Origin: Patescibacteria group bacterium
Lineage (GTDB): Bacteria > Patescibacteriota > Minisyncoccia > Phycocordibacterales > JBHPGB01
Assembly (NCBI GenBank): GCA_042571085.1
Contig: JBHPGB010000001.1
Span: forward strand, 3,190-67,189
Length of the DNA stretch: 64,000 nt
Direction of reading: 5' to 3'
The position numbers were made by a program, and so were the translations under genes. Of this stretch, positions 1 to 50,718 are shown one piece after another (position 1 is the stretch's first letter; each line of letters starts with the position of its first letter). The notes under the pieces were generated by a model that did no database searches, was not told the origin of the DNA, and was given only the letters and a program-made list of their open reading frames with translations.

Positions 1-2019
1 GAGGTTCACGAAGGTGAAACAGTAACCGACTGGATGGAGCAAGAGCGTGAGCGCGGTATTACTATTACTGCCGCTGCTATTTCTTGCGGATGGATTCCTA
101 CATATGCAAATGGTGATGAAAGTGCTCGTAATACATTCAACATCATTGATACTCCAGGTCACATCGACTTTACTTCAGAGGTAAAGCGTTCTATGCGCGT
201 ACTAGATGGTGCTGTTGTTGTGTTTGATGGGGTTGCTGGTGTTGAGCCACAATCAGAAACAAACTGGCGTTATGCAGAAGAAGCTCAAGTGCCACGACTG
301 TGTTTCATAAACAAACTTGACCGAACAGGTGCCAGCTTTGAGCGTTCATATGCATCACTACTTGAGCGCCTTTCTCCAAAAGCAATGCGTGTACAAATTC
401 CAATCGGTGAAGAAGAGGCGCACGAAGGAGCTGTGGATCTTTTGACAATGAAAGCATACAAGTATGAAGGTGCGATGGGAGAGAATGTTATTGAAGAAGA
501 AATTCCTGAAAACTTGAAAGCCGATGCAGAAAAATACCGCGGAGAACTTATAGAAAAAATTGTTGAAAATGATGAAGACTTAATGAACAAATATCTTGAA
601 GGAGAAGAAATTCCTTTGGAGACTTTGAAAACAGAATTGCGTAAAGCAGTAATTGCAAATGAAGTATTCCCAGTATTTTGTGGTTCAGCTCTTAAAAATA
701 AAGGTGTGCAGCTCGTACTTAACGGAGTTGTTGATTATTTGCCAAGCCCACTTGATTTACCTGCTGCAAAAGGAACTAATCCTGACACAGGTGAAGAAAT
801 AGAACGTGAAGCAAATGATGATGCACCATTCTCTGCTTTGGTATTTAAGTTGCAAACAGACCCATTCGTAGGACAGCTTTCATTCTTCCGAGTGTATTCT
901 GGTTCTGTAGAAGCGGGTTCATATGTATATAATGCATCAACAGAAAAGAAAGAGCGTGTTGGTCGTATCGTGCGACTTCAGGCTGATAAACGTGAAGAGG
1001 TGAAAAAGGTTGGTACTGGAGAGATTGCTGCAATGGTTGGAATGAAAGAAGCAAAAATCGGACACACGCTATGTGATGAAGATAATCCTATAATTCTTGA
1101 AGAAATGACATTCCCAATTCCTGTTGTTGCTGTGCGTATCGAACCAAAAACAAAAGCAGACCAAGAAAAGATGGGTATGGCACTTGCAAAATTGTCAGAC
1201 GAAGACCCAACATTCAAAGTATCATCTGATCCAGAAACAATGGAAACAATTATTTCAGGAATGGGTGAGCTTCACTTGGATATTATTGTTGATCGTATGA
1301 AGCGTGAGTTCTCAGTGGAGGCAGATATTGGTAAACCACAAGTTGCATATCGTGAAACAATTACCGGAAATTCTTCATCAGAAGTTAAATATATAAAACA
1401 GTCTGGTGGACGTGGTCAGTATGGTCATGTGAAAATCAACATTAAACCAATGGACAAGGAAGTTGATGTGGAAGATTTGCCAAAGAATACAAGGCGAACT
1501 GAAATATTTGAATTCGTAAACAATATTAAAGGAGGTGTTATTCCACAAGAATATATTCCTGCTTGTGAAAAAGGATTTAAAGAAGCTATGGAGAAAGGTG
1601 TTGTTGCAGGATATCCGATGGTGGATGTGTCAGTAGATCTTTACGATGGTACATACCATGATGTTGACTCATCAGAAATTGCCTTCAAAATCGCATCTTC
1701 TCAAGCATTCCAAGATGCTGCTAAAAAAGCAAACGCAGTATTGCTTGAGCCAATCATGAAAGTAGAAGTACAGGTACCTGAAGAATACATGGGAGATGTA
1801 ACAGGATCTATCAACTCAAAGCGCGGACAAGTGGAATCTATGGATGATCGCGTAGGAGTGAAGGTTATTACTGCAAAAGTACCTCTTTCAGAAATGTTTG
1901 GGTATACAACAATGCTTCGCTCACAAACTCAAGGACGAGGTAATGCTGTGATGGAATTCTCACATTACGCAATTGTACCTAAGAATGTGGCTGAGGATAT
2001 TGTTTCTAAAAGAGCATAG
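1..2019 (+). CDS. fusA: Elongation factor G, 5'-truncated by window edge (reading frame open from base 1)
   Basis: Translation shows GTPase G-motifs (IIDTPGHIDF, FINKLDR) and EF-G domains IV/V; frame continues upstream of first Met at 34. Confidence 0.95.
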   Translation, partial: EVHEGETVTDWMEQERERGITITAAAISCGWIPTYANGDESARNTFNIIDTPGHIDFTSEVKRSMRVLDGAVVVFDGVAGVEPQSETNWRYAEEAQVPRLCFINKLDRTGASFERSYASLLERLSPKAMRVQIPIGEEEAHEGAVDLLTMKAYKYEGAMGENVIEEEIPENLKADAEKYRGELIEKIVENDEDLMNKYLEGEEIPLETLKTELRKAVIANEVFPVFCGSALKNKGVQLVLNGVVDYLPSPLDLPAAKGTNPDTGEEIEREANDDAPFSALVFKLQTDPFVGQLSFFRVYSGSVEAGSYVYNASTEKKERVGRIVRLQADKREEVKKVGTGEIAAMVGMKEAKIGHTLCDEDNPIILEEMTFPIPVVAVRIEPKTKADQEKMGMALAKLSDEDPTFKVSSDPETMETIISGMGELHLDIIVDRMKREFSVEADIGKPQVAYRETITGNSSSEVKYIKQSGGRGQYGHVKINIKPMDKEVDVEDLPKNTRRTEIFEFVNNIKGGVIPQEYIPACEKGFKEAMEKGVVAGYPMVDVSVDLYDGTYHDVDSSEIAFKIASSQAFQDAAKKANAVLLEPIMKVEVQVPEEYMGDVTGSINSKRGQVESMDDRVGVKVITAKVPLSEMFGYTTMLRSQTQGRGNAVMEFSHYAIVPKNVAEDIVSKRA

Positions 2020-2120
2020 TAGATTAAATTCCCGACTTTATTTTCTTAAGAGCGAAGCGAATTAGAAAATAAGAAGTACTCTTGTGGTGAAATCTCAAAC
2101 CCTAAAATCAAAAACTAATA

Positions 2121-2152
2121 AAAAAGCGCGGGCTAAAGCCCGCGCTTTTTTA
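2121..2152 (+). terminator. Rho-independent terminator after fusA
   Basis: GCGCGGGC-taaa-GCCCGCGC stem followed by TTTTTT. Confidence 0.7.
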
Positions 2153-2244
2153 TGCACACAGCATGCTTGCCCAAGGTTTTTAATAGCAGTACAATGAATA
2201 AGACAAGATTGTCTAATAATTATTAACAAAATTAACCAATAACC

Positions 2245-2868
2245 ATGCAAGATCTAATAAAAACAACAAAAATAATCGTTTTGGCATTTGTAATAGCAGC
2301 AGGGGCAAGCTATGTATATGCTTGGACAGGACCAACCTCGCAACCACCAAATGCTAACGCAGATTCGCCGATAAACGTGGGTGTAGAGAGTCAGTACAAA
2401 GATGGAGCCTTTGGTGTCGGTGGGCTTCTGCGCGGATATGCAGATTTGATTGTTGACGGTGGTGTTGGTATTGGTACTGAAACGCCTACAGCAACACTGG
2501 AAGTGGTTGGGGATATAAGAACAAATGGTTATTCCAGAAGCGATACAGATAATGGAAATTTTCGAACAACACAACAAGATGGGGGTGGACGATATCATCA
2601 AGCATGGAATGTTGAAGGTACTTCCATATATACAGGAACATATGAAGTCACTGGAGATCCGGCATTATGGATAAGATGGAGTACAGATGGATGGACATTT
2701 AAAACAGCAGCGGCTGGAACAGCAGGTGATACGATTGTTTGGACAGATGGCGCAAACCAAAATGTAGACGGTACTTTTAGAGCCAAAGGAGGTCTTGTTA
2801 TAGAAACTCGTACAAGTGACCCAGTTTCTCCAGTTTCTGGTCAAATGTGGCTACGAACAGATTTGTAA
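2245..2868 (+). CDS. Hypothetical secreted/signal-anchored protein (TLEVVG-type beta motif)
   Basis: N-terminal hydrophobic segment KIIVLAFVIAAGASYVYA; no recognisable catalytic motif; inserted between fusA and tuf. Confidence 0.5.
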   Translation: MQDLIKTTKIIVLAFVIAAGASYVYAWTGPTSQPPNANADSPINVGVESQYKDGAFGVGGLLRGYADLIVDGGVGIGTETPTATLEVVGDIRTNGYSRSDTDNGNFRTTQQDGGGRYHQAWNVEGTSIYTGTYEVTGDPALWIRWSTDGWTFKTAAAGTAGDTIVWTDGANQNVDGTFRAKGGLVIETRTSDPVSPVSGQMWLRTDL

Positions 2869-2877
2869 AATTTATAC

Positions 2878-4644
2878 ATGCATAGTTACAAAAATTATCT
2901 TACACACTTAGTTAAAGCCAGCACTCTTATGGTGTGCGCTTTATTTTTGTTGCTAAGTGCCCACTTTGCACATGCGGCAGAAATAGATCTTGGGCTACGT
3001 TTTTCTGATGGATCAGAAACATACATAGCAGCTATAGAGCCTTTTGGCACACTAACTTCTCCACTACGTATTTCTGATGAAAACGGTGATGTGTACGGAG
3101 TTATTCTGGTGGACGTAAGTGATCCTGATGCATTACCTGTTCGTATACAAACTTCAGGTGGAACTAAGGCGATAAAAAAATATAACCCATTTGATCCGAG
3201 TGTCATCACATCATGCGAGGAGCTTCAAAAGATTGGCTATTACGCGGAATATCCTGGTTCTGAAGATTACACAATTGATCCAGACCCAGCAAAAAACTAT
3301 GGTAATAATTACATAGACTGTAGAGCAACAAATCCAGCAAATCCGGAAAATGCAGGTTCTGTTTGGGATGCAACGACTGGTGGGTTATATTATTCAGCTG
3401 GAGGAAAGGGATTTTTACCATTAGCAATAGGCTCAGTCTTTACTGGCTCAATTGATGGACAGGGTAATAAGATAGTTAATCTATTCATCGATAGGCGTAC
3501 ATCATCTGACTATGGATATTCTACTGGTTTGATCTCATACGGTTCTGGTGCAAGTATAAGCAATCTAGGGCTACAAAGCACTACCATAAAAGGAGAGACT
3601 TATGTTGGAGGACTAGTTGCCAGTTGTGCAGGATGTACAATCACTAATTCTTATGTAAAAGGCACGGTTAATGGATACGGACCCTCTGGGGATAAGGGAG
3701 GTCTTGTCGGGAGGCTTATGAGCCCTTCTGTGGTTACAAATTCTTATACAACAGGAACGATGGGAATAAGAGACGGGTATTTAACTGGTGGTGTGTTTGG
3801 TAGTGTGTATGGTTCTACAATCGACGGATGTTATTCAACTGCAACCACATACGGAAAAGGAGGTCTTGCTGGTACTGTTGACTCATCCACCATCACAAAT
3901 TCATACACGACCGGACGTGTTATAGGAAAATACGGTGGAAGCATGACTGGTGGATTGGTTGGGTATGTTAGCGGCGCATCATCAATAACAAATTCTTACG
4001 CAACAGGGAATGTAACAGCCGGAGATTACGGATGGCACACAGGGGGGCTCGTTGGGGTTAATAGTGGTGGTTCAACTATTACAAATTCTTATGCAACTGG
4101 AAATGTGTTTGGTGACCAGTACAATACCGGTGGTTTGGTCGGAAAAAATGATAGATCAACAATTACAAAGTCTTATGCAAGCGGAGATGTTGATGGATTA
4201 TATGATGTGGGAGGGCTTGTTGGATATAATGATGGTAATATAACCGCCTTGACAGGCTCCACAATCACAAACTCCTATGCAACTGGAAATGTAACAGGTA
4301 CTTCATGGGTCGGAGGATTTGCAGGACTCCATCAGTACAATTCTAAAATCAATAGGTCTTACTCAACTGGACTGGTTACTGCAGGAGGACAGAGCGTAGG
4401 TGGTTTTATTGGAAGGAATATTAGTTCTACACAGGCTTATTCATACTACAATTATCAAAGCTCTGGACAAGCTAACCCGGTTGGATCCGGCTCAAGTACT
4501 GGAGTAGGTAAAAAAACAACAACACAAATGAAACAACAAGGTACTTACACAGGATTTAACTTTACAACACCTATATGGAAAATGATTTCAGGTAGGTATG
4601 CTTGTTTAAATTGGCAAACAAACGCTTCTTGCCCAATTCCTTAA
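2878..4644 (+). CDS. Secreted repeat protein with multiple GLUG-type motifs (TITNSYATGNV...GGLVG repeats)
   Basis: Signal peptide-like N-terminus; at least 8 tandem approx 25-aa repeats each containing GGLVG/GGFxG and TNSY(A/T)TG. Confidence 0.6.
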   Translation: MHSYKNYLTHLVKASTLMVCALFLLLSAHFAHAAEIDLGLRFSDGSETYIAAIEPFGTLTSPLRISDENGDVYGVILVDVSDPDALPVRIQTSGGTKAIKKYNPFDPSVITSCEELQKIGYYAEYPGSEDYTIDPDPAKNYGNNYIDCRATNPANPENAGSVWDATTGGLYYSAGGKGFLPLAIGSVFTGSIDGQGNKIVNLFIDRRTSSDYGYSTGLISYGSGASISNLGLQSTTIKGETYVGGLVASCAGCTITNSYVKGTVNGYGPSGDKGGLVGRLMSPSVVTNSYTTGTMGIRDGYLTGGVFGSVYGSTIDGCYSTATTYGKGGLAGTVDSSTITNSYTTGRVIGKYGGSMTGGLVGYVSGASSITNSYATGNVTAGDYGWHTGGLVGVNSGGSTITNSYATGNVFGDQYNTGGLVGKNDRSTITKSYASGDVDGLYDVGGLVGYNDGNITALTGSTITNSYATGNVTGTSWVGGFAGLHQYNSKINRSYSTGLVTAGGQSVGGFIGRNISSTQAYSYYNYQSSGQANPVGSGSSTGVGKKTTTQMKQQGTYTGFNFTTPIWKMISGRYACLNWQTNASCPIP

Positions 4645-4670
4645 AAATTGTAATCCTCTTAGTTTATTTA

Positions 4671-4700
4671 AAAAGCCCGGGCCAAGCCCGCGCTTTTTTT
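4671..4700 (+). terminator. Rho-independent terminator after GLUG-repeat gene; near-copy of the fusA terminator
   Basis: AGCCCGGGC-caa-GCCCGCGCT stem plus T7 run. Confidence 0.65.
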
Positions 4701-4702
4701 AT

Positions 4703-4730
4703 TGACAAAAGCCAGCTATTCATATAATAT
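4703..4730 (+). promoter_or_regulatory. Sigma70-like promoter candidate for tuf
   Basis: TTGACA at 4703-4708 and TATAAT/TAATAT at 4723-4730 (spacer 14-16). Confidence 0.4.
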
Positions 4731-4851
4731 ACGGGATACGCGCTGCGGGCTTTTTTGTTTGTGGGCGTACTTAAAAGATTAATTATTAATTATATAACGG
4801 TAAGTATTTAGGCTTTCTCGCGCTTTAAATACTTTTCGTTATCAAAACAAT

Positions 4852-6045
4852 ATGGCAGATGCATTTGATAGAACAAAGCCACACGTAAACGTAGGTACTA
4901 TTGGTCACGTTGACCACGGTAAAACTACTCTTACAGCTGGTATTTTGAACTCATTGAAGCTAGACGGACAAAACGTAAAGTTTGAAGACGTTGCTTCAAT
5001 TGATAACGCTCCTGAAGAGCGTGAACGTGGTATTACAATTTCACTTCACCACAGTGAATACGAGACAGCTAATCGTCACTACGCGCACATCGATGCGCCA
5101 GGTCACGCCGACTACATCAAAAACATGATTACCGGTGCGGCACAGATGGACGGCGCAATTTTGGTTGTTGCTGCTACTGATGGTGTGATGCCTCAGACTC
5201 GTGAGCACATCTTGCTTGCAAAACAAGTTGGTGTGCCAAAGATCTTGGTATTCATTAACAAAGTAGACATGGTAGATGATCAAGATATGATTGACCTTGT
5301 TGAAGAAGAAATCCGAGAACTTCTTACAAAGTACGGATTTGATGGTGAAAATACACCTATTGTTAAAGGTTCAGGTTTGAAAGCTGCAGAAGCTTCAGAT
5401 ATCAATGATGAATATGTACAAAAATGTCTTGAGCTTATGAAAGCTCTAGATGAATGGATTCCAACACCAGAGCGTGAATTGGACAAGCCTTTCCTTATGC
5501 CAATTGAAGACATCTTCTCAATTGAGGGACGTGGAACAGTAGTAACAGGACGTATTGAAAGAGGTCAGGTTAAGGTTGGAGAAGAAATTGAAATTGTTGG
5601 TATCAAAGATACAGCAAAGACAACAGTTACAGGTATTGAAATGTTCAACAAAAGTCTTGAGTCAGGACAGGCTGGAGACAACGCGGGAATTTTGGTTCGT
5701 GGAACAAAGAAAGAGGACATTACTCGTGGACAGGTTCTAGCTGCTCCAGGGTCAATTACACCTCACACAGAATTTGAAGCTGAAATCTACGTATTGAAGA
5801 AAGAGGAAGGTGGTCGTCACACTCCATTCTTCTCAGGTTACAAGCCTCAGTTCTACATTAGAACAACAGATGTAACAGGAGACGTTACACTTCCAGAAGG
5901 AACAGAGATGGTTATGCCTGGAGATACAGTAACATTCAAAGTTAAGCTTGTTGCTCCAGTTGCTATGGAAGACCAAATGCGCTTCGCGGTTCGTGAAGGT
6001 GGTAAGACTGTAGGTGCTGGTGTTGTTACAAAAATCATCGCTTAG
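4852..6045 (+). CDS. tuf: Elongation factor Tu
   Basis: [21 protein letters not shown] motifs; 397 aa. Confidence 0.97.
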
Positions 6046-6252: not shown

Positions 6253-6594
6253 ATGGCTACAAAAAAAACTACAAAAAAAGGAGATGAGACACCAAAATTG
6301 CGTATTCGCGTAGGTGCATATGAGCACAAAGTGCTTGATGCATCTGTAAAGCAGATCATTGATACTGCTATGCGCTTAGACGCACAAATTATTGGTCCAG
6401 TCCCTCTTCCTACAGAGAAAAAGAAATATACCGTCAACCGCTCTTCATTTGTCTACAAAGACGCGCGAGAGCAGTTTGAAATGAGGATTCATAAGCGATT
6501 GATTGATATTTTGAACCCTACTCCAAAGATTGTGGAGGCGTTGACTAACCTCAACCTCCCATCAGGAGTTAACGTGGATGTTAAGATGAGCTAA
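6253..6594 (+). CDS. rpsJ: Ribosomal protein S10
   Basis: 113 aa, canonical S10 sequence ([13 protein letters not shown]...). Confidence 0.95.
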
Positions 6595-6608
6595 TTATTT
6601 AAGCATTA

Positions 6609-6656
6609 CACACAAAACAAAAGCGTCGGCTTCGCCGACGCTTTTGTTTTGTGTGT
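6609..6656 (+). terminator. Very stable hairpin/terminator after rpsJ (22-bp perfect stem, UUCG tetraloop)
   Basis: CACACAAAACAAAAGCGTCGGC-ttcg-GCCGACGCTTTTGTTTTGTGTG. Confidence 0.7.
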
Positions 6657-6660
6657 AAAA

Positions 6661-6722
6661 ACTAATCGGCTCACTCGCAGTGAGTCGATTAATATGTTGA
6701 AGAATAAGGGTAAAAAAATCGC
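6661..6722 (+). repeat. Member of CGGCTCA-palindrome repeat family (variant copy)
   Basis: AATCGGCTCActcgcagTGAGtCGATTAATAtgTTGAAGAATAaGGGT; compare 34471-34532 and 36393-36454. Confidence 0.6.
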
Positions 6723-6766
6723 ACTGGAGTAAGTCGGCAGGGGTAAATTAAATTAGGTGTGGGGGC

Positions 6767-6795
6767 TTGCACCAATTCAGCTTATGGTGTAATAT
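6767..6795 (+). promoter_or_regulatory. Sigma70-like promoter candidate for rplC (S10 separated from L3 by terminator + promoter)
   Basis: TTGCAC (6767-6772), 17-nt spacer, TAATAT (6790-6795). Confidence 0.5.
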
Positions 6796-6867
6796 GGTGG
6801 ACATTAAACAAGCGAATGGCTTACGTGAACAGATACGAAGCCAGTACGCTGTCTTTATTTTTGTACT

Positions 6868-7479
6868 ATGAAAAAGTTTATCTTAGGAACAAAAGAAGAA
6901 ATGACACAAATTTTTACCGAAGACGGTAAAGTTATTCCTGCTACAGTAGTAAATGCTGGGCCGGTTAAAGTTACTCAGGTAAAAAGCACTGACGGAAAAG
7001 ACGGATACGAAGCAGTACAGGTTGGATTTGGTTCAAAGAAAGAAAAGAGTATAAATAAGGCCGAAAGAGGTCATATGGGAAATGATGATAATTTCAGCGA
7101 TTTAGTAGAGTTTCGTACTGAAGGGTCAGAACTTAAGAAAGGAGACGAAATCACAGCTGACATTTTTGAAGAAGGAGATGACGTACAAGTAAGCGGAATC
7201 AGTAAGGGTAAAGGTTTCCAAGGTGTTGTTAAGCGTCATGGATTTCACGGAGGACCACGAAGTCACGGTCAGAAGCACTCAGAGCGTGAGCCAGGATCAA
7301 TTGGTGCTACGGGACCGCAAAGAGTATTCAAAGGTAAACGAATGGGCGGCAGAATGGGATCAGACAGAGTTACTGTTAAAGGATTGAAGATTGTGGGAGT
7401 AGATAAAGAAAATAATAAGCTTTTGATATCAGGAGCTGTACCAGGAAAGCGTGGAACACTACTTGAAATTCGCGGATAA
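6868..7479 (+). CDS. rplC: Ribosomal protein L3
   Basis: 203 aa; L3 signature around GKGFQGVVKRHGF. Confidence 0.95.
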   Translation: MKKFILGTKEEMTQIFTEDGKVIPATVVNAGPVKVTQVKSTDGKDGYEAVQVGFGSKKEKSINKAERGHMGNDDNFSDLVEFRTEGSELKKGDEITADIFEEGDDVQVSGISKGKGFQGVVKRHGFHGGPRSHGQKHSEREPGSIGATGPQRVFKGKRMGGRMGSDRVTVKGLKIVGVDKENNKLLISGAVPGKRGTLLEIRG

Positions 7480-9525: not shown

Positions 9526-9627
9526 TTCCATTTTTGGCGCAGAACTTTGTCGACTGCTTCGAAATAATACTCACAGTACCACTCGTACAGCTCATATTAT
9601 TTCTCATTGCCTCCTCGTTCTGCATCC
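9526..9627 (+). repeat. Copy 2 of conserved r-protein-operon intergenic element
   Basis: TTCCAtttttGGCG...TCGAAATAATACTCACAGTACcactcGTACAGCTC...GCCTCCTCG; closing stem GCAGAAC/GTTCTGC. Confidence 0.7.
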
Positions 9628-9653
9628 AAAAATGAAATTATCTTGAACTAAAC

Positions 9654-9686
9654 AAAAAACGACCCGCACATGCGGGTCGTTTTTTG
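9654..9686. terminator. Bidirectional terminator between rplB (+) and K+ channel gene (-)
   Basis: AAAAAACGACCCGCACATGCGGGTCGTTTTTT. Confidence 0.7.
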
Positions 9687-9701
9687 TTTATTTTTTTAAC
9701 T

Positions 9702-10475
9702 TTATTCAAGTGAGAATTCGTTCTTTATTACATGGCCACAATGCTTGCAGTGCGAAGCGTCTAGTTCGTGTCTACGTAGCCCACAATCTGGGCATTCATA
9801 TTGAATACGTGGGCGACGAAAAATACTTTGTGCAAGTCTAATAAATAAAGTAACGCCGAAAATCATAATGATAATGGAAAGCATTTTACCTGCGGTTCCA
9901 ACGGCTATAATATCCCCAAAACCGGTCGTGGTGAGTGTTGTGATGGTGAAATAGAGAGCATCAAGGTGGTTACCTATATTTGCATTGATTGAGGATTGAG
10001 AAACAAATACGATTACTGTCATTACAAAAAGGAATACAAAGAAGTTTAAAATTCCAACGATTATATTTCTATTGCGCGCGATTGCACCATTTTCTTTCTC
10101 TAGATAATCAAGTGCGCGGTATGTTCTGAAGATACGCAATGTCCTTATTACTCGAAGGATTGCAAGATTGCCGACAAGTGCAGGCATCAGAAGTGACACT
10201 ATTACAATAAAATCAGTAATCGCTAGCAGGCTAAATGCATAATTAAGCTTTTTAGGTGCAAGCCATAATCTACCGATGTACTCAAAGGTAAATATTATTG
10301 CAAAGATGATTTCAACAGCATGTACCACCGAATGCTCAGGATATACGGCCTCAATTGCGAATAGGGAAAATAGTAAAATATCTATTAAAAACAACGTTTT
10401 ATTGAATATAACACTGGTGTGTTTCTTCCCATAAAAAAGTGTCCGCAATTTCCTTTTAAATTTCCTGATAGTCAT
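9702..10475 (-). CDS. Voltage-gated K+ channel-like protein (S4 sensor + TTGFGD filter) with C-terminal CxxC-CxxC zinc ribbon
   Basis: LRVIRTLRIFRTYR (Arg every third residue), selectivity filter TTTGFGDI, C-terminal CPDCG...CKHCG. Confidence 0.75.
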   Translation of the reverse strand: MTIRKFKRKLRTLFYGKKHTSVIFNKTLFLIDILLFSLFAIEAVYPEHSVVHAVEIIFAIIFTFEYIGRLWLAPKKLNYAFSLLAITDFIVIVSLLMPALVGNLAILRVIRTLRIFRTYRALDYLEKENGAIARNRNIIVGILNFFVFLFVMTVIVFVSQSSINANIGNHLDALYFTITTLTTTGFGDIIAVGTAGKMLSIIIMIFGVTLFIRLAQSIFRRPRIQYECPDCGLRRHELDASHCKHCGHVIKNEFSLE

Positions 10476-10954
10476 TACATATATTGTACTTTGAATCTCA
10501 GATGTTTCAACTGGTAATTTGACTTAGTGTATCATTGCTGTTAATCTGTGCGAGGAGTTTGAGCTGTTCTTGTTAATTTATGAGGAGAAATTATATGGCT
10601 GAAAACGGTGTAATGCCCACAGCAGCATCTTTATTTCCGACGGAATGGAATTCCGACGGGTGTGAACACCAAAGTGTGATTCTCACAGCTTTGAACATAT
10701 CATGTCCGGAAGATGCTGGTGTTGCTTCCGTGCAGATCGATGACCTTGAACCGTTTGTTCCTGTGAAAGGTAAATACTGGAGTCTCGCTTTTGCGCGATT
10801 TGTTGCAGGTTGTTTCGACTCTGCTTTTCGCGGTGTCACGAGCTCTTCATATGCATATAGCATTAATGATGAAATGAAGGAGCTTTGTTGGGCATGCTTT
10901 GGTTTGCCTGAGGATCATGGTGGTTTTTACACAGCATTTCTTAACGGCAGTACA

Positions 10955-11815
10955 ATGCAAATTAGCTACATATCAACAGGAGAAATTGAAGTGAATGAAA
11001 ACATACAGAAAATCATCGAAGAAGCTTTTGAGCAGCGGGCAGAGATTAATCATAAGAATGCCTGTAGTACCCTTCGGCAGGCTGTTGCTATTGCTATAGA
11101 GGGATTGGATGACGGATCTGTTCGTGTTGCTGAGAAAATTGACGGCGACTGGGTCGTCAACGACTGGGTCAAGAAGGCGGTGTTGCTTTCGTTCAGGATT
11201 AACGATAATGAGCCAATATTAGGCGGTTTCACCAACTATTATGACAAAGTGCCGTCCAAGTATGCCGGTGCCAGCGACAGGCGCCTACGCGATGATGGTG
11301 TGCGCATAGTACCCCCAGCTGTCGTTCGCAAGGGCAGCCACATTGCTTCAGGTGTTGTACTCATGCCGAGCTACGTGAACATCGGCGCCTATGTGGACAG
11401 CGGCACTATGGTGGACACCTGGGCCACGGTCGGCTCCTGTGCTCAGATCGGTAAGAATTGCCACATTTCTGGCGGTGCTGGAATCGGTGGTGTATTGGAG
11501 CCATTACAAGCCAACCCAACCATCATCGAAGATAACTGCTTCATTGGAGCTCGTTCCGAGATCGTGGAAGGGGTGATTGTTGAAGAAGGTTCAGTGATTT
11601 CCATGGGCGTCTTCATCGGTCAGAGCACCAAGATCTACAATCGCGAAACCGGTGAGATCAGCTATGGCCGCGTACCTGCTGGTTCTGTGGTGGTTGCTGG
11701 TTCTTTACCATCAGCTGATGGTAGCTATAGCCTCAACTGTGCAATCATCGTCAAACAGGTGGACGAGAAAACACGTGGCAAGGTTAGCATCAACGAACTG
11801 CTGCGCGAGGCCTAG
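10955..11815 (+). CDS. dapD: Tetrahydrodipicolinate N-succinyltransferase (gammaproteobacterial type); annotated from internal Met, ORF open to 10580
   Basis: Very high similarity recalled to E. coli DapD across 270 aa (e.g. [80 protein letters not shown]); local GC clearly above flanks. Confidence 0.85.
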
Positions 11816-11855
11816 ATCTGTTCTTTCAACTAAAAAATTGACCAAATTTATGGTC

Positions 11856-11882
11856 AAAAACCCCGCAAACGCGGGGTTTTTC
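11856..11882 (+). terminator. Terminator after dapD
   Basis: CCCCGC-aaac-GCGGGG plus TTTTT. Confidence 0.6.
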
Positions 11883-12010
11883 TATGCATATATTCATGAA
11901 AAGTTTAAAACATGTTTTCAGATTGCTTGAAAGTCCAGAAAATTTGACTTTATTCTCCATTCTGCTAATATATGCGGGAAGCTCTCGTAGGGCTTTTTGT
12001 ATTTAAACTT

Positions 12011-15849: not shown

Positions 15850-16446
15850 TTGTTTGACTTTCGTGTTTGTATTGATAATATGTGTATAGGTTCGGTTTTT
15901 TGTTGGAGAATGTATATGAATATTCCCATTGATCAAGATCCTAGTATTCCAGAAATGGATGTTTTGGAATGTTTATCTAATGAAGAACTCGCAAGACTTT
16001 TACTAAGACAGCTTTGGCAATGCTATGACAGTGGTGGAATATCTATAGGAAGATCTCCAGAAAGCCAGTTGCTTGAAGCTGTTATGAATATCATCCCATT
16101 ACCAGATCTTGTAGATATGGATAGATTTTATTCAGATGATATTATGATAGAAGCAAGGATTCGTTTTGTCGTGATAGGGCGTGAGTCGTGTGAAATGAAG
16201 CAGTGCGCTTTGTTTCAACAAGATCCTACGTTGTCTGATAACTGTCTTGTGTATTTGCTTCTGAAAAAACTAACCAACCTTTATGAAAAGGAAGAATTTC
16301 CAAGATTGGCTGAAGTTGGACTCATAACAAATGCAATGAAACTTATTTCTATTGATCTGATTGAGAATTTGGAGTCTTTGCCCGATTTTTCTGAAAAAGT
16401 TTTGTTGCAAGAAGCAGCTGATAGAGATTGGGCTAAAAATCATTAA
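15850..16446 (+). CDS. Hypothetical protein (inserted between rplE and rpsZ)
   Basis: 198 aa, Cys-rich N-terminus, no recognised motif; stop overlaps start of next gene (TAAATG). Confidence 0.55.
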   Translation: MFDFRVCIDNMCIGSVFCWRMYMNIPIDQDPSIPEMDVLECLSNEELARLLLRQLWQCYDSGGISIGRSPESQLLEAVMNIIPLPDLVDMDRFYSDDIMIEARIRFVVIGRESCEMKQCALFQQDPTLSDNCLVYLLLKKLTNLYEKEEFPRLAEVGLITNAMKLISIDLIENLESLPDFSEKVLLQEAADRDWAKNH

Positions 16447-17439
16447 ATGAGTGTTGTTATTTTATTTTGCAGCACTCTTTTTTGTTTAATTGACTTATGT
16501 GCTTGGACGAGTATTATGATACCAGGTTTGATTTTTGAGGATTTAACAATGAGTAATCGAAAGGTAAAACTGCTGACCTATGGAACAATTCCGTGCTGGT
16601 ACGAATTAAGTTGGGACAAAAATAACCTAGCAATAATTTTTAAGTTGCACAAAAACGCAATTTTGAATAATGGGATTGGTTTCGCCAAGAACTTTCCATC
16701 CGATGCTCCGATTGTAGAGCATTTGCATAAAAGTTTGGGTCTAAATGAGTTTTGCGGCAACTTAGATACAGATTTTGGTTTCGGTGGTGTGCTTAAACAC
16801 AAAGGAGAAGAGGGTGAATTCGTTGTCTTTTCTGTTGCGCTGCCAAATATACGAAAAACCACAAATAACAAATGCCCTATCTGTAATGATAATGGTGATG
16901 AAGGGTGTCTTTTTTGCGGTGGTAGTGGTGTGGAATGGAGATTTGATCATGATCTTCTATTTAATATTTCCGCATCTTTTGTAGTTATGTTTACGGCGTT
17001 TGGTGAGTATTCTGACTACGACACTGAATGTGAATTTCCACAATTGATGACGGTTGATCTAACGATTGAGAAAAGATCTGTGTATGGAGCTTGTATTGGT
17101 GGAAAATTTGGAATTGATTTGGTGAAGTGGATGAGTACTTTTAATCCAAATACCAAAATTACAGAAATGATAGAGGCGATGAAGTGCGCGTATGGACAGA
17201 TGTCCGGTATTGTTCCTGATAAATACGAAAGGTTTCTTGCAAGCATTGACTATGAAAACGGATGGCTTAATGTTAGTTGTCCTGGAAATGCATGCGGACT
17301 GAATCCTTCTAATGGAAACGTTTGTGCCGGTGAAGGATATGGGTTTTCTCCACATAATACAGACACACCCTTACAGCAGCTTACTCTTCTTGCTGGTCTT
17401 GCGGCATTGCATGACAAAGCCCGAAAAGAAATGCCCTAA
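16447..17439 (+). CDS. Hypothetical protein with DnaJ-type CxxC-x7-CxxCGGSG zinc-finger-like motif
   Basis: 330 aa; CPICNDNGDEGCLFCGGSG; translationally coupled to upstream ORF. Confidence 0.55.
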   Translation: MSVVILFCSTLFCLIDLCAWTSIMIPGLIFEDLTMSNRKVKLLTYGTIPCWYELSWDKNNLAIIFKLHKNAILNNGIGFAKNFPSDAPIVEHLHKSLGLNEFCGNLDTDFGFGGVLKHKGEEGEFVVFSVALPNIRKTTNNKCPICNDNGDEGCLFCGGSGVEWRFDHDLLFNISASFVVMFTAFGEYSDYDTECEFPQLMTVDLTIEKRSVYGACIGGKFGIDLVKWMSTFNPNTKITEMIEAMKCAYGQMSGIVPDKYERFLASIDYENGWLNVSCPGNACGLNPSNGNVCAGEGYGFSPHNTDTPLQQLTLLAGLAALHDKARKEMP

Positions 17440-30323: not shown

Positions 30324-33300
30324 ATGAAGAATAAAATATTTAGCAAGGGTCTCTATTTCTTAATTTTTACGGCAATTTTTGCTGTTTTGCCTTTATCTGC
30401 TTCAGCTGCAACATATGTGAGCGGCACAATTTCCACCGATACCGTTTGGACTGCTTCAAGTAGTCCGTATGTGGTGCAGGGTATTGTTGCTTTGGATCAA
30501 TACAGAACTCTTACAATAGAACCTGGTGTGGTTGTTAAATTTGATACTGGCGCATTGTTGCATGCACACGGTACACTTAACGCTCAAGGTACCACAGAAG
30601 ACAAAATATATTTCACCTCAATCAAAGACGACAGTATCGGTGGCGACACAAATGGAGATGGAGATGCTTCAGTGGCAGCGCCTGGTGATTGGGGTTTTTT
30701 AAATATTTCTACCTATCTGCCACGCAGTCCCCTTTCTTCCATTAAAAATATAGTGGTTCGATATGGTGGAGGTGTTGATTATAATACTACCGGTGCAGCG
30801 GTTATAATTTCTGATTCCGGGCTAGAGTCTATAGATAATTCTGAATTTGCATACAATAAAGTTGGACTTTACAACGAGTATGACAGTGTTGAGATAACTA
30901 ATAGTAATTTTCATCACAATGAAATCGGTGTGTATTCAGCTCCAAGACATCGTGGTTGGGGTGCGACAAGAATACTTACTTTTAATAACAACACAATTTC
31001 TGACAACTCATTATACGGGGTAGATATAGGATATTACAAGCCAACTTACGGTGTTGTGTCCAGTAGTTTTGATTTTAATAATAATATTTTCACAAATAAT
31101 CCAACAGCTTTGCGTGTGTATAGTAATACTATATTATCTCATTCAAACAATTCTGCTTCTGGTGGTGATAAAAATGGAATATTAATTGGTGATGGAATAC
31201 ATCCAAATACAAATTGGAATGCCGATAATATTCCATATATTATTGATGGTAATATTTATTATCGCGGTGGTACTCTTACCATTGATCCTGGAACTGTAAT
31301 TAAATTTACTTCTCCCGAATCTATTTTAGATATACATGCTCGTGTTTTTCTTCATATAAATGGAACTCAAGATGAACCAGTTTATTTTACTTCTATCAAA
31401 GACGATAGTGTCGGTGGCGACACAAATGGAGATGGGTCTGCTTCAGTACCAGCAGCAGGTGACTGGGGATATGTTTCTATAGGAGAGGGATCTTCTAATA
31501 TAGGTTTGGATATAAATTATATGAAAGTGCGCTATGGAGGTGGCTCTTTTTTCCGAAATAATATTTACCCTGCTCTAGCCCTGTCTTTTAATTGGTATCA
31601 ATATACTTTAGTTAAAGATTATTACTTGGAAAACATTGAAGTTTCAAATAGTAAATCTGGTCTCTATGTGCATTCTGTTAAACACAGATTTCATCTTTCA
31701 AACAGTAGTATCCACGATAATGAAGACTATGGGCTGTATGCATATACATATTTTAGATACGGACCTAACGGAGAAGTAGATGCACAAAATAACTGGTGGG
31801 GAGATGCTTCAGGGCCATATCAAGTGGATCAAAATCCTTCTGGTCTTGGAAATGAAATTTCTGGTGATGTCCCAACAAATGCATCATTTGATCCATGGCT
31901 TACAGAGGATCCGCTTGTTTCAACACCAACATGCTGTTCTAGTGTGGTGTTTTTGCCAGGTTTGGAAGCAAGTCGTTTGTACCGACCTGGGTTAACGCTA
32001 TTTTCAGAAGACCAATTATGGTATCCGAATACCACAAACGATATACAAAACCTCTCACTCTCTACAACCACTGGTGAGAGTATTGATCCAAATGTTTACA
32101 CGCGTGATGTGCTTGATGAGGTTGCTGGGACAGTAAATATATACAAAGGCTTTTTGTCTGATATGAATAAGCTTGTAGATTCTGGAACAATAGCGCAATT
32201 TGAACCTATGCCATACGATTGGCGTAAAGATCAGAAAGATGTTGCAATGCAACCTGTTGTGATTGGAAGAAATGGAGAAAGTTATTCAATGGTACAAAAG
32301 ATTGAAGAATTGGCGTCGACATCACAAACAGGAAAAGTTACGATCATAACACACAGTAACGGAGGGTTAGTTGCAAAAGAGCTTATTGAATTACTTCGTA
32401 AGGCTGGAAAGAGTTCTTTGGTGGAACAGCTTATTATGGTAGCAGCACCAGAATTAGGAACACCAAAAGCGGTTTTGTTAATGTTGCATGGAGAAAATCT
32501 TACTGGGCCACCTGATTATGTAAACACTCGTGAACTCGGAGAAAATATGAAAAGTGCGTACACCCTCCTGCCTTCCAGTGCGTATTTTGATCCGAGTAGA
32601 ACAGGATTATTACCTAGTCAAAATATTATAGAATTTAGTACTACAACTTCCGCAACGCAATATTTCCGCGATTTGTATGGAGAGAGTATTTCAGATTACG
32701 ATACATTACGAAAGTTCTTGCTTGGGGACAATGGATTGCGTATCGAGCCTATAGCGAGTGCAGTCAGTGAGCCAAATGTTCTGAAAGAAAATTTCTTGGA
32801 GAATGCTGAAACTCGCCACAGTTTTCAAGATACATGGACTCCTCCTGAAGATATTAAAGTAACAGAGATTGTTGGATGGGGCCTTGATACTGTGAATGGA
32901 ATTCGTTATGATGCAACACAAAAAACCATATGTAATGAAGACAAGTCTGTATGCACCAAACAAGATATTATTGATCCGCAACCATTAGTTACTGTAAATG
33001 GAGACGGAACGGTTGTGCATTTGTCGGCAGAGGCGACAGAAGGAGCGGATAGGTATTGGGTTGATATAAGCGAGTATAATGCAGGACCAAAAGTTAATCG
33101 TGATCATAAAAATATTCTAGAAGTTAAACCCTTAATTGCTCTTTTGTCTACTCTTGTTAAAAATGATGAGGTTACAATTCTGCCTGATGACTATATAAAA
33201 TCAGATCAGCCACAACTTTCTGATGCAGAGTCACGATTGCGCATCGGTGTTCATTCACCTGTAACGCTACATCTTTATGACAACTATGGTCGTCACACAG

Positions 33301-33959
33301 GACCAGCTGTAAATCCAGATCCAGACTCAGATCTTCCATTTGTAGAAGAGCAGATTCCAAATACTTACTATTGGAATATTGGAGAAGGTCAGTATGCAGG
33401 TGTTGGTGTAGACACAATAACTACAATAAAATTAACAGGGAAAAAACTCGGCACATTTACTGTTGATATTGATGAGGTTGTTGGTGATGAGTCTGTATCC
33501 ACAAACATATTTGCTAATATACCAACTACTGAAAATACTATCGCACATATTGCAGTGGGTGAAACAGTACATACACCAGTACTTCTGGTTGATATAGATG
33601 GTGATGATAATAATGATGTAGAAATCAACCCTAATGAAGAAGTGTCTGACACAGACTATCTTGTACTTTTGCGCGGCGTCATAACAACAATGGATTTGTC
33701 AGAGAAAAAAGAGGAAAAGCTTATTAAAGCAATAGATCGTATTCTTAAGTCTGTTGAGAAAGAAGAAAAGTGTGTAAACAAAAAAGAAGAAAATGCACAA
33801 AAGAAGTGTGATATACATTTTGATCATAAGTTTGGAAAAAGGTTTGACTACTTTGTAAAAATAATTGAAAAATTTGAAGAACGAGAAATATTGTCTGATA
33901 TCGAAGCGAGAGAACTAATTGATGTTATTGGTAAAATTGAGGGTGAGATGGTAATATAA
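30324..33959 (+). CDS. Giant secreted multidomain protein: duplicated N-terminal module, right-handed beta-helix (NosD-like) repeats, central LCAT/PGAP1-like alpha/beta-hydrolase (lipase/acyltransferase) domain, coiled-coil C-terminal tail
   Basis: Signal peptide; repeat YFTSIKDDS(I/V)GGDTNGDG.ASV.A.GDWG twice; CCSSVVFLPGLEASRLYRP and ITHSNGG lipase-like nucleophile; C-terminus ELIDVIGKIEGEMVI. Confidence 0.65.
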   Translation: MKNKIFSKGLYFLIFTAIFAVLPLSASAATYVSGTISTDTVWTASSSPYVVQGIVALDQYRTLTIEPGVVVKFDTGALLHAHGTLNAQGTTEDKIYFTSIKDDSIGGDTNGDGDASVAAPGDWGFLNISTYLPRSPLSSIKNIVVRYGGGVDYNTTGAAVIISDSGLESIDNSEFAYNKVGLYNEYDSVEITNSNFHHNEIGVYSAPRHRGWGATRILTFNNNTISDNSLYGVDIGYYKPTYGVVSSSFDFNNNIFTNNPTALRVYSNTILSHSNNSASGGDKNGILIGDGIHPNTNWNADNIPYIIDGNIYYRGGTLTIDPGTVIKFTSPESILDIHARVFLHINGTQDEPVYFTSIKDDSVGGDTNGDGSASVPAAGDWGYVSIGEGSSNIGLDINYMKVRYGGGSFFRNNIYPALALSFNWYQYTLVKDYYLENIEVSNSKSGLYVHSVKHRFHLSNSSIHDNEDYGLYAYTYFRYGPNGEVDAQNNWWGDASGPYQVDQNPSGLGNEISGDVPTNASFDPWLTEDPLVSTPTCCSSVVFLPGLEASRLYRPGLTLFSEDQLWYPNTTNDIQNLSLSTTTGESIDPNVYTRDVLDEVAGTVNIYKGFLSDMNKLVDSGTIAQFEPMPYDWRKDQKDVAMQPVVIGRNGESYSMVQKIEELASTSQTGKVTIITHSNGGLVAKELIELLRKAGKSSLVEQLIMVAAPELGTPKAVLLMLHGENLTGPPDYVNTRELGENMKSAYTLLPSSAYFDPSRTGLLPSQNIIEFSTTTSATQYFRDLYGESISDYDTLRKFLLGDNGLRIEPIASAVSEPNVLKENFLENAETRHSFQDTWTPPEDIKVTEIVGWGLDTVNGIRYDATQKTICNEDKSVCTKQDIIDPQPLVTVNGDGTVVHLSAEATEGADRYWVDISEYNAGPKVNRDHKNILEVKPLIALLSTLVKNDEVTILPDDYIKSDQPQLSDAESRLRIGVHSPVTLHLYDNYGRHTGPAVNPDPDSDLPFVEEQIPNTYYWNIGEGQYAGVGVDTITTIKLTGKKLGTFTVDIDEVVGDESVSTNIFANIPTTENTIAHIAVGETVHTPVLLVDIDGDDNNDVEINPNEEVSDTDYLVLLRGVITTMDLSEKKEEKLIKAIDRILKSVEKEEKCVNKKEENAQKKCDIHFDHKFGKRFDYFVKIIEKFEEREILSDIEARELIDVIGKIEGEMVI

Positions 33960-33963
33960 ATGT

Positions 33964-34410
33964 ATGTTGAATCATAAAAAAGTCGCAATATTTTTGTTTA
34001 CAGCAACCGTCATTATAAATTATATTGTCTATTTAATCTGGGAACCTCCATACGATAGTTTGTGCGGTGGTGGAATTCATGAAAATAGAGATTGTGTTAA
34101 TTTAATAAACAACTTAAGCGAACCTGTTTTTTGGTCTTTTCTAGCACTTCTTCCAGTTACTATAGCTCTTTTCTTCCTACGTCGTGAAGTATTTGTGGCT
34201 TGGGTAAAGTTTGCAGCTATTGGATTTCCTATAATGCTTGCAGGACTTCTCTATACATTCAACATGCCACAATCTACAGGATCATTTATGGGAGGTCCAT
34301 CAGAATCAGAAATTGCATCTGTTGTTCTTCCAGGCCTCTTCCTCATTATCTCCCTCTTAATCATCGCAATAAAATCTTGGAAGTTGAGGAAAATGAATGG
34401 TGCTGAATAA
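33964..34410 (+). CDS. Small 4-TM membrane protein, paralog A (C-terminal 27 aa identical to paralog B)
   Basis: ...GLFLIISLLIIAIKSWKLRKMNGAE; followed by the same terminator as paralog B. Confidence 0.6.
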   Translation: MLNHKKVAIFLFTATVIINYIVYLIWEPPYDSLCGGGIHENRDCVNLINNLSEPVFWSFLALLPVTIALFFLRREVFVAWVKFAAIGFPIMLAGLLYTFNMPQSTGSFMGGPSESEIASVVLPGLFLIISLLIIAIKSWKLRKMNGAE

Positions 34411-34470
34411 ATATAAAATACAACAAAAAACCGCCCTCAAGCGGTTTTTTTATACCCACAGGGCACAGGT

Positions 34471-34804: not shown

Positions 34805-35212
34805 ATGTATAAAAGAAATATTATAAAATACCTTGAGATATCTTTTGTTGGAATTATTCTTAGTCTAATATTGTTAAATGCACCAGAAATTGGTTTTTGT
34901 GTTAATTGTTACGGTTTGGCAGATGTTGGGCAGCCTTTAAGTTTGTTGTTTTTGTCACTCGTTGTTATTTTTACGTTTTTGTTTTTCGCAAAGAAGATGG
35001 TTTTCACAACATGGAAAAAGTTTGCAATTCCATACCTCATATTTTCCACGATCATTCTTCTAATACCATCTGGTGGCATGGGTGGATTTATGGGGGGAGG
35101 GCCTGACAATGAATTTTTTGCAATAATACTTTCTGGTCTCTTCCTCATAATCTCCCTCCTAATCATCGCGATAAAATCTTGGAAGTTGAGGAAAATGAAT
35201 GGTGCTGAATAA
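34805..35212 (+). CDS. Small 4-TM membrane protein, paralog B
   Basis: Same architecture and identical C-terminal 27 aa plus identical terminator (AAAAAACCGCCCTCAAGCGGTTTTTT) as 33964..34410. Confidence 0.6.
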   Translation: MYKRNIIKYLEISFVGIILSLILLNAPEIGFCVNCYGLADVGQPLSLLFLSLVVIFTFLFFAKKMVFTTWKKFAIPYLIFSTIILLIPSGGMGGFMGGGPDNEFFAIILSGLFLIISLLIIAIKSWKLRKMNGAE

Positions 35213-35265
35213 ATACAAAACTCAACAACAAAAAACCGCCCTCAAGCGGTTTTTTGTTGTTGGAA

Positions 35266-47074: not shown

Positions 47075-47160
47075 TTCGATTCTCCCCATCTCTCACAAAC
47101 GCAAACGCCGCCAAAGCAATGCTTTGGCGGCGGCGTTTTGTGGAGATGGGGAGAATCGAA
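47075..47160. repeat. About 85-bp near-perfect palindrome built from inverted copies of the tmRNA T-arm/acceptor (TTCGATTCTCCCCATCTC) around an 11-bp GC hairpin
   Basis: Left arm 47075-47117, loop AAT, right arm 47121-47160; inner GCCGCCAAAGC/GCTTTGGCGGC. Confidence 0.65.
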
Positions 47161-47685
47161 CTCCCGTGCAAATAATGCTTCTGAATGAGTCTACAAAGGT
47201 TAGTACACTTTGGTTTGTTTAGAAGAGTGAGCTAAAAAGTGAACAAAATTTCTCACACCTCGATTCTCTATGTTTCGGTATTGTATCGAGAAATAATACT
47301 CTTTCCGATTAAATACTTCTTAAGAAAACCTCAGAATTTTAGACGAGACAAAGTAAAAAATATAAAGAATATCCTTAGATATTTTGAATATTTTTTGCAA
47401 AGTCGTAGTCAAAATTATGGTGTTTTCAAGGAGTAGTTAATCGGAAAGGGTATAAAACAAGACCTAGTCTGAAAAATATTACACTCAGATTTCACCTATC
47501 AAACTTTAGTGAACTGAACGCCGGCTTAGGCTAAAGCGTAAGCTGGAGAAGCAAAGTATGGGCTAACCATTGCTTTTGCTTTTTGTGACAAGTTTGCACT
47601 TATCGTGTGTAGCCTTTTGAATAGTTACTACAGCTATCCTTCGCACATGCAAAAGGGAAATCATCTGTCGATACCGATCACCCCC
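47141..47685 (-). ncRNA. ssrA: tmRNA (ssrA) candidate, unusually long (about 545 nt) with about 200-nt AT-rich insertion before the T-arm
   Basis: 5' GGGGGUGAUCGGUAUCGACAG (tmRNA 5' consensus), acceptor pairing GGGGGUG/CAUCUCC with G3-U wobble, tag ORF ending ...ASPAYALA-UAA, 3' GGGAG-UUCGAUU-CUCCC T-arm; adjacent to smpB. Confidence 0.6.
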
Positions 47686-50627: not shown

Positions 50628-50700
50628 GCGCGTATAGCTCAGTTGGTAGAGCGCAGAGCTTATACCTCTGTGGTCCTAGGTTCAAGTCCTAGTGCGCGCA
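50628..50700 (+). tRNA. tRNA with anticodon UAU (tRNA-Ile decoding AUA by anticodon; 73 nt, no encoded CCA)
   Basis: Cloverleaf: acceptor GCGCGTA/TGCGCGC, D-arm GCTC-AGTTGGTA-GAGC, anticodon stem CAGAG/CTCTG loop CTTATAC, T-arm CTAGG-TTCAAGT-CCTAG. Confidence 0.85.
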
Positions 50701-50718
50701 CTCATCATTTCATATAGA

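Follow-up and report, generated by a model that had tools for sequence, protein, structure and literature searches.

What are the two genes that separate fusA from tuf in this genome, and how did they come to lie there? The 64,000-nucleotide (nt) stretch of contig JBHPGB010000001.1 analyzed here (hereafter the window) comes from a metagenome-assembled genome (MAG) of the Patescibacteria (Candidate Phyla Radiation, CPR), and between fusA and tuf, both of which were verified with Pfam, it carries open reading frames (ORFs) of 207 and 588 amino acids (aa), here called P1 and P2. The same two genes had been seen at this place by an earlier, sequence-only reading, which missed that P1 and P2, as judged from sequence comparisons, are a conserved gene pair. 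P1 ends in a short "tail" and P2 starts, after its signal peptide, with a "dock" domain, and we consider it probable that this two-gene module encodes an extracellular fibre made of two pieces, in which P1 is the stalk and P2 the head, the two being joined by this tail-dock connector. The features of the pair are as follows.

2245-2868, plus strand: P1, 207 aa, the proposed stalk (NCBI: hypothetical protein, MFC1720635.1, locus tag ACFL0K_00030)
2770-2865, plus strand: the tail of P1, its last 32 aa, GGLVIETRTSDPVSPVSGQMWLRTDL, a predicted beta-hairpin
2878-4644, plus strand: P2, 588 aa (NCBI: GLUG motif-containing protein, MFC1720636.1)
2980-3183, plus strand: the dock domain of P2, 68 aa, all-beta, EIDLGLRFSDGS..TLTSPLRI..YGVILVDVSD..VRIQTSGGTKAIKKY
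3622-4338, plus strand: tandem GLUG-type repeats in P2 (TITNSYATGNV..GGLVG), period 84-159 nt

P1 has few homologues, and in every case the next gene encodes a domain of ~65 aa that is shared with the start of mature P2. We took as a tail-dock pair a protein whose C-terminus reads GGLIIETRTSDP..G.[MI]WLRTD[LI] and, behind it on the same strand, a gene that encodes the 68-aa dock, and surveyed such pairs in the earlier loci, the window and 80 more loci obtained from a metagenome scan with the P1 alignment; a dock hidden Markov model (HMM) built from 4 seeds detected the domain in 80 ORFs of the related loci. The pair in the window is one of these pairs (tail HMM E 5e-24 for P1, dock HMM E 1e-38 for P2), its two genes lying in one frame and spaced by TAA and 9 nt. 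Eighty-nine ORFs end in the tail GGLIIETRTSDPxSPxxGQ[MI]WLRTD[LI] with 0-3 residues after it, and in 87 of the 89 carriers the tail stands at the extreme C-terminus. A dock gene lies downstream on the same strand of 69 of the 89, directly adjacent in 51 of these and with a small gene in between in the other 18 pairs; the rest include 8 tail ORFs without room on the contig and 2 fusions (L104 and L118). A phmmer search extended the dock to 590 cluster representatives at E<=1e-3, four of them clear fusions that hold tail and dock in one chain (P0130, P0138, P0159 and P0266). A word-based search for homologues of the dock region by itself gave no match.

The partner proteins differ greatly in their extracellular domains. 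The dock is found at their extreme C-terminus in 51 cases and just past the signal peptide, as in P2, in 15. Among 47 non-redundant partners we found subtilase, reprolysin, Kelch, FG-GAP, FN3, NosD, DUF285, Fib_succ_major and GLUG domains. Hydrophobic N-termini were present in 66 of 69 partners and in all 52 non-viral P1-like proteins, and in none of the three viral ones. One P1-like protein bears YadA-head repeats, a repeat type of trimeric adhesins. The module also lies at 5752-7437 of L164, a contig that encodes S24e and S27ae ribosomal proteins of archaeal type, and by this gene content it is not confined to bacteria. NIGWI-repeat proteins recur near the pair in some loci, and in L001, L002, L005 and L105 the pair is often preceded by a "GYAWSDNIGWIDF"-repeat protein and a small coiled-coil membrane protein. 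In L002 the pair is followed by what looks from its sequence like a PilB/GspE-type ATPase, with no Pfam match.

The junction between tail and dock is continuous in other proteins. In the fusions the dock comes directly after an internal tail, and a set of giant proteins contains 8-12 internal repeats of the contiguous unit GGGLRK..P.NP..GDVWYKTD-TDVYYQY.NDGT..YW.DY, to which the collinear profile of tail plus dock aligns across the junction (hhalign probability 97%, E 8.6e-11). The tailspikes of Bacillus phages Stills, Staley and Mater carry the element GGLVLDKRTSDPADAVEGQVWYRTDSSKAPVRVMTSEGVKSF, the tail motif being followed by a short dock-like strand pair; in the Stills tailspike the tail motif is internal, between the pectin-lyase beta-helix and the C-terminal (distal) domain. 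This phage match is weak (E 3e-3 over 35 aa) and covers the tail only. If P1 and P2 were instead independent secreted proteins, with tail and dock each recognised by another partner, for instance an anchor in the cell wall or S-layer or a machine dedicated to secretion or sorting, and with genes that are merely co-regulated, one would understand why the tail is strictly C-terminal like a sorting signal, why the dock may sit at either end of a protein, why 18 pairs admit a small gene in between, and why the NIGWI-repeat proteins and the PilB-like ATPase of L002 turn up as neighbours. We regard this explanation as unlikely, since it leaves aside the internal tails with their immediately following docks in the fusions and the contiguous homologous units in the repeat proteins and the tailspike, and since viral fibres, which are assembled in the cytoplasm, use the pair without export machinery.

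Viral contigs show how the pair is used there. Contig L171 has a central tail fibre J gene (phrog_31, E 7e-152), next a gene for a protein of 198 aa whose C-terminus is ..GQMWFRTDV, and then a gene that starts with a dock, MADIGLRIYDG..; contigs L166 and L168 have the same split of tail and dock, with divergent docks. The earlier suggestion of phage tail-fibre domains thus stands for the connector, which is found in viral tail-fibre genes, and not for P1 and P2 themselves, neither of which matches any PHROGs family (for P2, 0 families at E<=0.1, P1 likewise). The pair could then be thought a prophage or tailocin remnant, that is, leftover tail-fibre genes with no cellular role, a view to which the viral modules, the phage tailspike, the GIGT-type fibre motifs of P1 and the exclusively phage-derived Foldseek matches described below all lend something. 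It is nevertheless very unlikely. In addition to the missing PHROGs matches, both proteins have export signals that the viral versions lack, the canonical dock occurs in 1 of 2.9 million viral contigs against 80 ORFs in cellular metagenome loci, and both ORFs are intact and conserved in a twin MAG. On either side lie fusA, tuf and genes for ribosomal proteins, with no other phage gene nearby and hence none for baseplate, sheath, tube, tape measure, terminase or integrase.

We modelled the joined tail and dock with AlphaFold2 (AF2) from a 68-row alignment. The predicted local distance difference test (pLDDT) was 86.7 overall, above 90 in the dock and 68-80 in the tail hairpin, whose strands were placed at residues 10-14 and 25-29, and the predicted template modelling score (pTM) was 0.64; a single-sequence AF2 run on a chimera of P1 and the dock gave a pLDDT of 32. 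Foldseek found no match to the model in the PDB, and the profile found nothing meaningful among PDB sequences (best E 0.91). The sole Foldseek matches, with 29% identity over 93 columns (E 5e-5, probability 1.0), were Caudovirales proteins that are uncharacterised.

The fibre that we propose would be built as follows. P1, which carries tail-fibre-like motifs and ends in the conserved 32-aa tail, a predicted beta-hairpin, would be exported or anchored by its N-terminus. P2 would be secreted by the Sec pathway, its mature N-terminus being the all-beta dock followed by the GLUG cassette. Tail and dock would join by beta-strand complementation and so rebuild the junction that is continuous in related proteins, and the joining would hang the P2 head, likely an adhesin, on the P1 stalk. 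Because this dock is attached in other genomes to proteases, propellers, FN3 and further domains, it may be a general mounting adaptor. Several points weigh against this picture. The conserved pairing, the natural fusions, the collinearity, the viral tail-fibre setting and the export signals are observed, whereas binding of tail to dock is something that we infer, as we do the stalk and head topology and the adhesive role; the AF2 model is an artificial single chain, in whose alignment no more than four natural fusions connect tail with dock, and its pTM is only the value given above. The N-terminus of P1 is possibly cleaved, which would leave the retention of the stalk on the cell unexplained. 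Finally, 10 loci with downstream room have no detectable dock partner; the HMM misses divergent docks such as those of L166 and L168.

In P1, aa 1-26 form a hydrophobic signal or anchor, a basic stretch followed by a hydrophobic one ending VYA-W. By its sequence this N-terminus could be either an uncleaved anchor or a cleavable signal, so the description of P1 as signal-anchored stands for the hydrophobic N-terminus and not for the choice between the two, which the sequence does not decide. A conserved W-T-G-P-T..PP..N...PIN motif follows at aa 27-46 and a GVGIGTETPTATLEVVG motif at aa 72-89 (homologues P0002-P0006 were aligned with P1); an 85-aa insertion within the protein is private to P1. 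Other proteins carry the W-T-x-P-T..PP..N...PIN N-terminal motif without a tail. P1 had 0 matches in Pfam, PHROGs and NCBIfam. A type IV pilin would have a prepilin motif (G|F/M xxxE) before its hydrophobic helix and a Pfam N_methyl match; P1 has no Pfam match, and its hydrophobic stretch comes first, with A-WTGPT after it. DUF2793 (PF10983), a domain associated with tail fibres in phages and gene transfer agents, was not matched in P1 and reached a sub-threshold score in the distant repeat protein P0275 alone (23.1 bits against 27).

P2 consists of a typical Sec signal (aa 1-33, ..SAHFAHA-AE), the dock (aa 35-102) and a GLUG beta-helix cassette (~aa 105-588), and this cassette is the only part of either protein assigned to a named family. 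The HMM check proposed by the earlier reading matched Pfam GLUG (PF07581) in 4-5 stretches and scored 116.9 bits (E 1.1e-34), above the gathering threshold of 20.5. That reading had counted at least 8 GLUG-like repeats, in agreement with the ~9 "[ST]ITNSY.TG" units that we counted by eye in the translation; 7 copies are in register at the DNA level. Of the 5273 GLUG homologues of P2 that we found, the 120 best all lack the dock. No peptidase family of Pfam was detected in P2, and the IgA1 protease/ZmpA-type model NF046017 scored 35.8 bits against a cut-off of 3000, in the GLUG region only.

Known systems offer several points of comparison. GLUG surface proteins, which include IgA1-protease/Zmp-type proteins, resemble P2 in that its residues ~105-588 are a full GLUG cassette, and homologues fuse the cassette to type IX secretion system (T9SS) sorting domains, LPXTG, pilin or flagellin N-termini and hemagglutinin-type secretion domains; they differ in that none of the best 120 has a dock and in that P2 has no protease domain. 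Donor-strand complementation, as in chaperone-usher and type V pili, may serve as an analogy, with a strand or hairpin of one subunit completing the beta-structure of the next, whereas here genes for a chaperone or an usher are absent, and P1 and P2 would make a heterotypic, one-off pair that does not polymerise. Cohesin-dockerin systems are alike in logic only, a small module being placed on many unrelated extracellular domains and its partner element on a scaffold; cohesin and dockerin Pfam domains are absent from P1, P2 and the 47 partners, and what pairs with the dock is a C-terminal hairpin of 32 aa and not a domain. The Bacillus phage tailspike, of pectin-lyase fold, shares the tail motif and dock-like strands but has them inside one polypeptide. 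Two-gene phage fibres with a separate distal piece are a further such system (T2/T6 gp37 with the gp38 adhesin, and T5-like LtfA/LtfB; PMC3157838, PMC4728585). There, as we propose here, a fibre gene is followed by the gene of an attached, specificity-bearing and highly variable distal piece, and the tail-dock pair occupies that very position in L171, L166 and L168. P1 and P2, in contrast, have no sequence or HMM kinship with gp37/gp38 or Ltf, would be exported by a cell and not assembled on a virion, and use an undescribed connector: it was found in none of Pfam, PHROGs, NCBIfam and PDB sequences, and our literature searches gave no paper on GLUG in Patescibacteria and, among the titles and abstracts listed, none on the module.

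We now turn to how the pair came to lie at this junction, whose other features are the following.

1-2019, plus strand: fusA (elongation factor EF-G), its 5' end cut by the window edge; Pfam EFG_IV, GTP_EFTU, EFG_III, EFG_C
2118-2153, plus strand: terminator T1 after fusA, a perfect palindrome, bidirectional, intrinsic, with 17-nt arms that are 100% complementary
2167-2195, plus strand: weak promoter-like site before P1, TTGCCC-17-TACAAT, 9/12, from a consensus scan alone
4669-4702, plus strand: terminator T2 after P2, a near-copy of T1 (one mismatch in the stem, loop shorter), abutting the tuf -35
4702-4730, plus strand: tuf promoter, TTGACA-17-TAATAT, 10/12 match
4731-4851, plus strand: structured tuf leader, a short hairpin with U-run and then a long hairpin; an inverted repeat, free energy (dG) -32.8, z -3.4
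4852-6045, plus strand: tuf (elongation factor EF-Tu); Pfam GTP_EFTU, D2 and D3

Both T1 and T2 have the G+C-rich hairpin and U-run of Rho-independent terminators (dG -26.6 with z -6.65 for T1, dG -18.9 for T2), and no shuffled sequence folds equally well. They were described earlier as near-copies that bracket the insert, and their alignment over ~33 nt, hairpin plus A and T tracts, indeed matches at ~30 of 33 positions with one indel. They share an exact 16-mer, AAGCCCGCGCTTTTTT, with no other copy in the 64 kb, and a weak likeness perhaps reaches ~15 nt further, past the T-run and into a degenerate -35. Shuffled sequences never yield such similarity. When the strong terminators of the window are compared pairwise (136 pairs, median score 10), however, unrelated pairs score 25 and 23 against 27 for T1-T2, so the two are near-copies but no clear outlier; replacing the shuffle null by this fairer one weakens the case for a duplication, and the proposed check for a target-site duplication at the insert edges has this likeness as its result. 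The only pair stronger than T1-T2 lies on the minus strand at 34425-34450 and 35223-35262, and since its likeness runs ~55 nt into the terminal parts of two small genes for membrane proteins, the tandem paralogues at 33964-34410 and 34805-35212, that pair reflects a tandem gene duplication.

Which terminator would be the older one is suggested by relatives with short gaps. In L015, L024 and L036 the fusA terminator abuts the tuf -35 just as T2 does, and the T2-tuf junction "CTTTTTTATTGACAAAA" is common to L024 and L036; T2 thus appears to stand in the likely ancestral position and T1 to be the extra copy. The idea that the insert carried a duplicate of the fusA terminator is therefore retained in part: the positions suit it, the similarity is marginal when set against other terminator pairs, and the duplication is plausible and suggestive, not demonstrated. 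A genome-wide family of terminator repeats was rejected because other terminators differ.

From these observations one may picture a recent insertion, through site-specific recombination or recombination at short homologies, that took place at or next to the terminator of fusA and left T1 and T2 as direct repeats at the edges. Besides the shared 16-mer, the likeness running into the -35 and the position of T2, the cargo itself would fit, being unique to this genome among 80 relatives. Against it, the T1-T2 score barely exceeds those of unrelated pairs, and all-G/C stems of 8 bp leave few alternatives in sequence. The insert consists of two ORFs only, with no transposase or integrase and no terminal inverted repeats, and its composition shows no anomaly; a compositional sign of horizontal transfer was rejected, as its G+C of 0.40-0.44 equals that of the flanks. 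Flanking repeats were likewise rejected as a general trait of fusA-tuf inserts (0 of 24 other inserts). Nor can the age be estimated, the nearest relatives being at 74% EF-G identity and the twin MAG at 99.9%. We therefore see a recent insertion as a real possibility that on balance we doubt; it concerns the origin of the module and not its function, and so is compatible with the stalk-and-head explanation.

To compare the junction across relatives, we scanned for EF-G with one genome per species and obtained 80 loci with 54-74% identity, mostly from Paceibacteria-type CPR. The spacing between fusA and tuf, a comparison that the sequence-only reading had called for, ranged from 111 bp to 9.2 kb in the 49 Patescibacteria loci with both genes and exceeded 1 kb in 24 of them; in at least four further loci tuf was not within 10 kb. 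The premise that fusA and tuf are normally adjacent therefore fails in this clade. The cargo is unrelated from genome to genome and includes a 2829-aa secreted protein and an ABC-transporter-like set, together with genes that resemble toxin-antitoxin pairs and pyrimidine-biosynthesis genes in their sequence. Export signals were found in 23 of 62 larger gap ORFs. One family of large secreted proteins (690-2829 aa) recurs in the gaps of four genomes, L006, L021, L033 and L049, and its members in L021 and L033 have an N-terminal "QI.AV..LL.SFN" region. In the subclade of L051, L060-L065, L070, L071 and L083, a small conserved ORF of 80-170 aa with the motif ..KKTGDRIVV..P..VLLPL.EYE.L lies just upstream of tuf.

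P1 and P2 homologues were found at the junction in none of the 80 related loci, and in none of about 85 other module loci does the pair lie near fusA or tuf. The same arrangement was seen only in the 99.9% identical twin MAG, so that the cargo is indeed lineage-specific; an exact-match lookup of the EF-Tu of the window returned 0 other contigs. The location is thus less special than first proposed, many relatives having unrelated cargo at the same place. The tuf promoter was rightly called consensus-like, and it has counterparts upstream of tuf in many relatives (the TTGACA-17-TAxxAT type is conserved in L014, L015, L024, L025, L026, L030, L032, L034 and L036). Because tuf has its own conserved promoter, the fusA-tuf junction is a boundary between transcription units, and from the genomes compared it is one at which accessory genes often accumulate in this clade. 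A short hairpin with a U-run follows the promoter within a few bases (e.g. ..CAATCGCAAATTTGCGTTGTTTTTGTTTG), in those relatives too, and looks like a conserved leader or attenuator; searches of the intergenic regions against Rfam gave no family, the sub-threshold matches being terminator look-alikes. As a variable site in the otherwise rigid ribosomal cluster of the clade, the junction matters for synteny-based binning and for the extraction of phylogenomic markers.

Several other features were observed in the window. The ribosomal gene cluster has a second break, 2.4 kb at 9526-11971 between rplB and rpsS, with a strong bidirectional terminator (9649-9690), an ion-channel gene on the minus strand (9702-10475, Pfam Ion_trans) and a hexapeptide/THDP-succinyltransferase-like gene (10580-11815) whose G+C is 0.535 compared with ~0.40 around it. 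A 270-nt spacer with a hairpin (6594-6868) separates rpsJ from rplC, with only sub-threshold Rfam look-alikes at 6568-6712, and two ORFs of 198 and 330 aa without Pfam match lie in the spc-operon region before rpsN (15850-17439). Further downstream are a 1211-aa secreted protein with a right-handed beta-helix and an LCAT-like lipase domain (30324-33959), a long transfer-messenger RNA match on the minus strand (47138-47685; 50.2 bits against the Rfam threshold of 47), which ARAGORN did not report, and a tRNA-Ile with anticodon UAU (50628-50701), an unusual route to reading AUA.

Patescibacteria live attached to other cells, and most of their surface proteins are unannotated. In the single case amenable to genetics, growth on the host depends on several adhesins (PMC10633639). 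The connector would give a sequence rule for surface-displayed effectors in CPR-like genomes, a 32-aa tail followed in the next gene by a 68-aa dock, and would tie those surface proteins to the receptor-binding machinery of viruses; it could also serve as a small natural tag for protein ligation or display. More tentatively, and with a little less than even confidence, we suggest that a widespread, previously undescribed tail-dock connector is common to viral tail fibres and to the cell surface in lineages of ultra-small symbionts (CPR and other bacteria, and at least one archaeal contig), and that in cells one anchored stalk with interchangeable heads makes up a modular attachment apparatus. 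If this is true, such a stalk would bear secreted heads (adhesins, proteases and lectin-like propellers) that may be rapidly exchanged in organisms that depend on a host.

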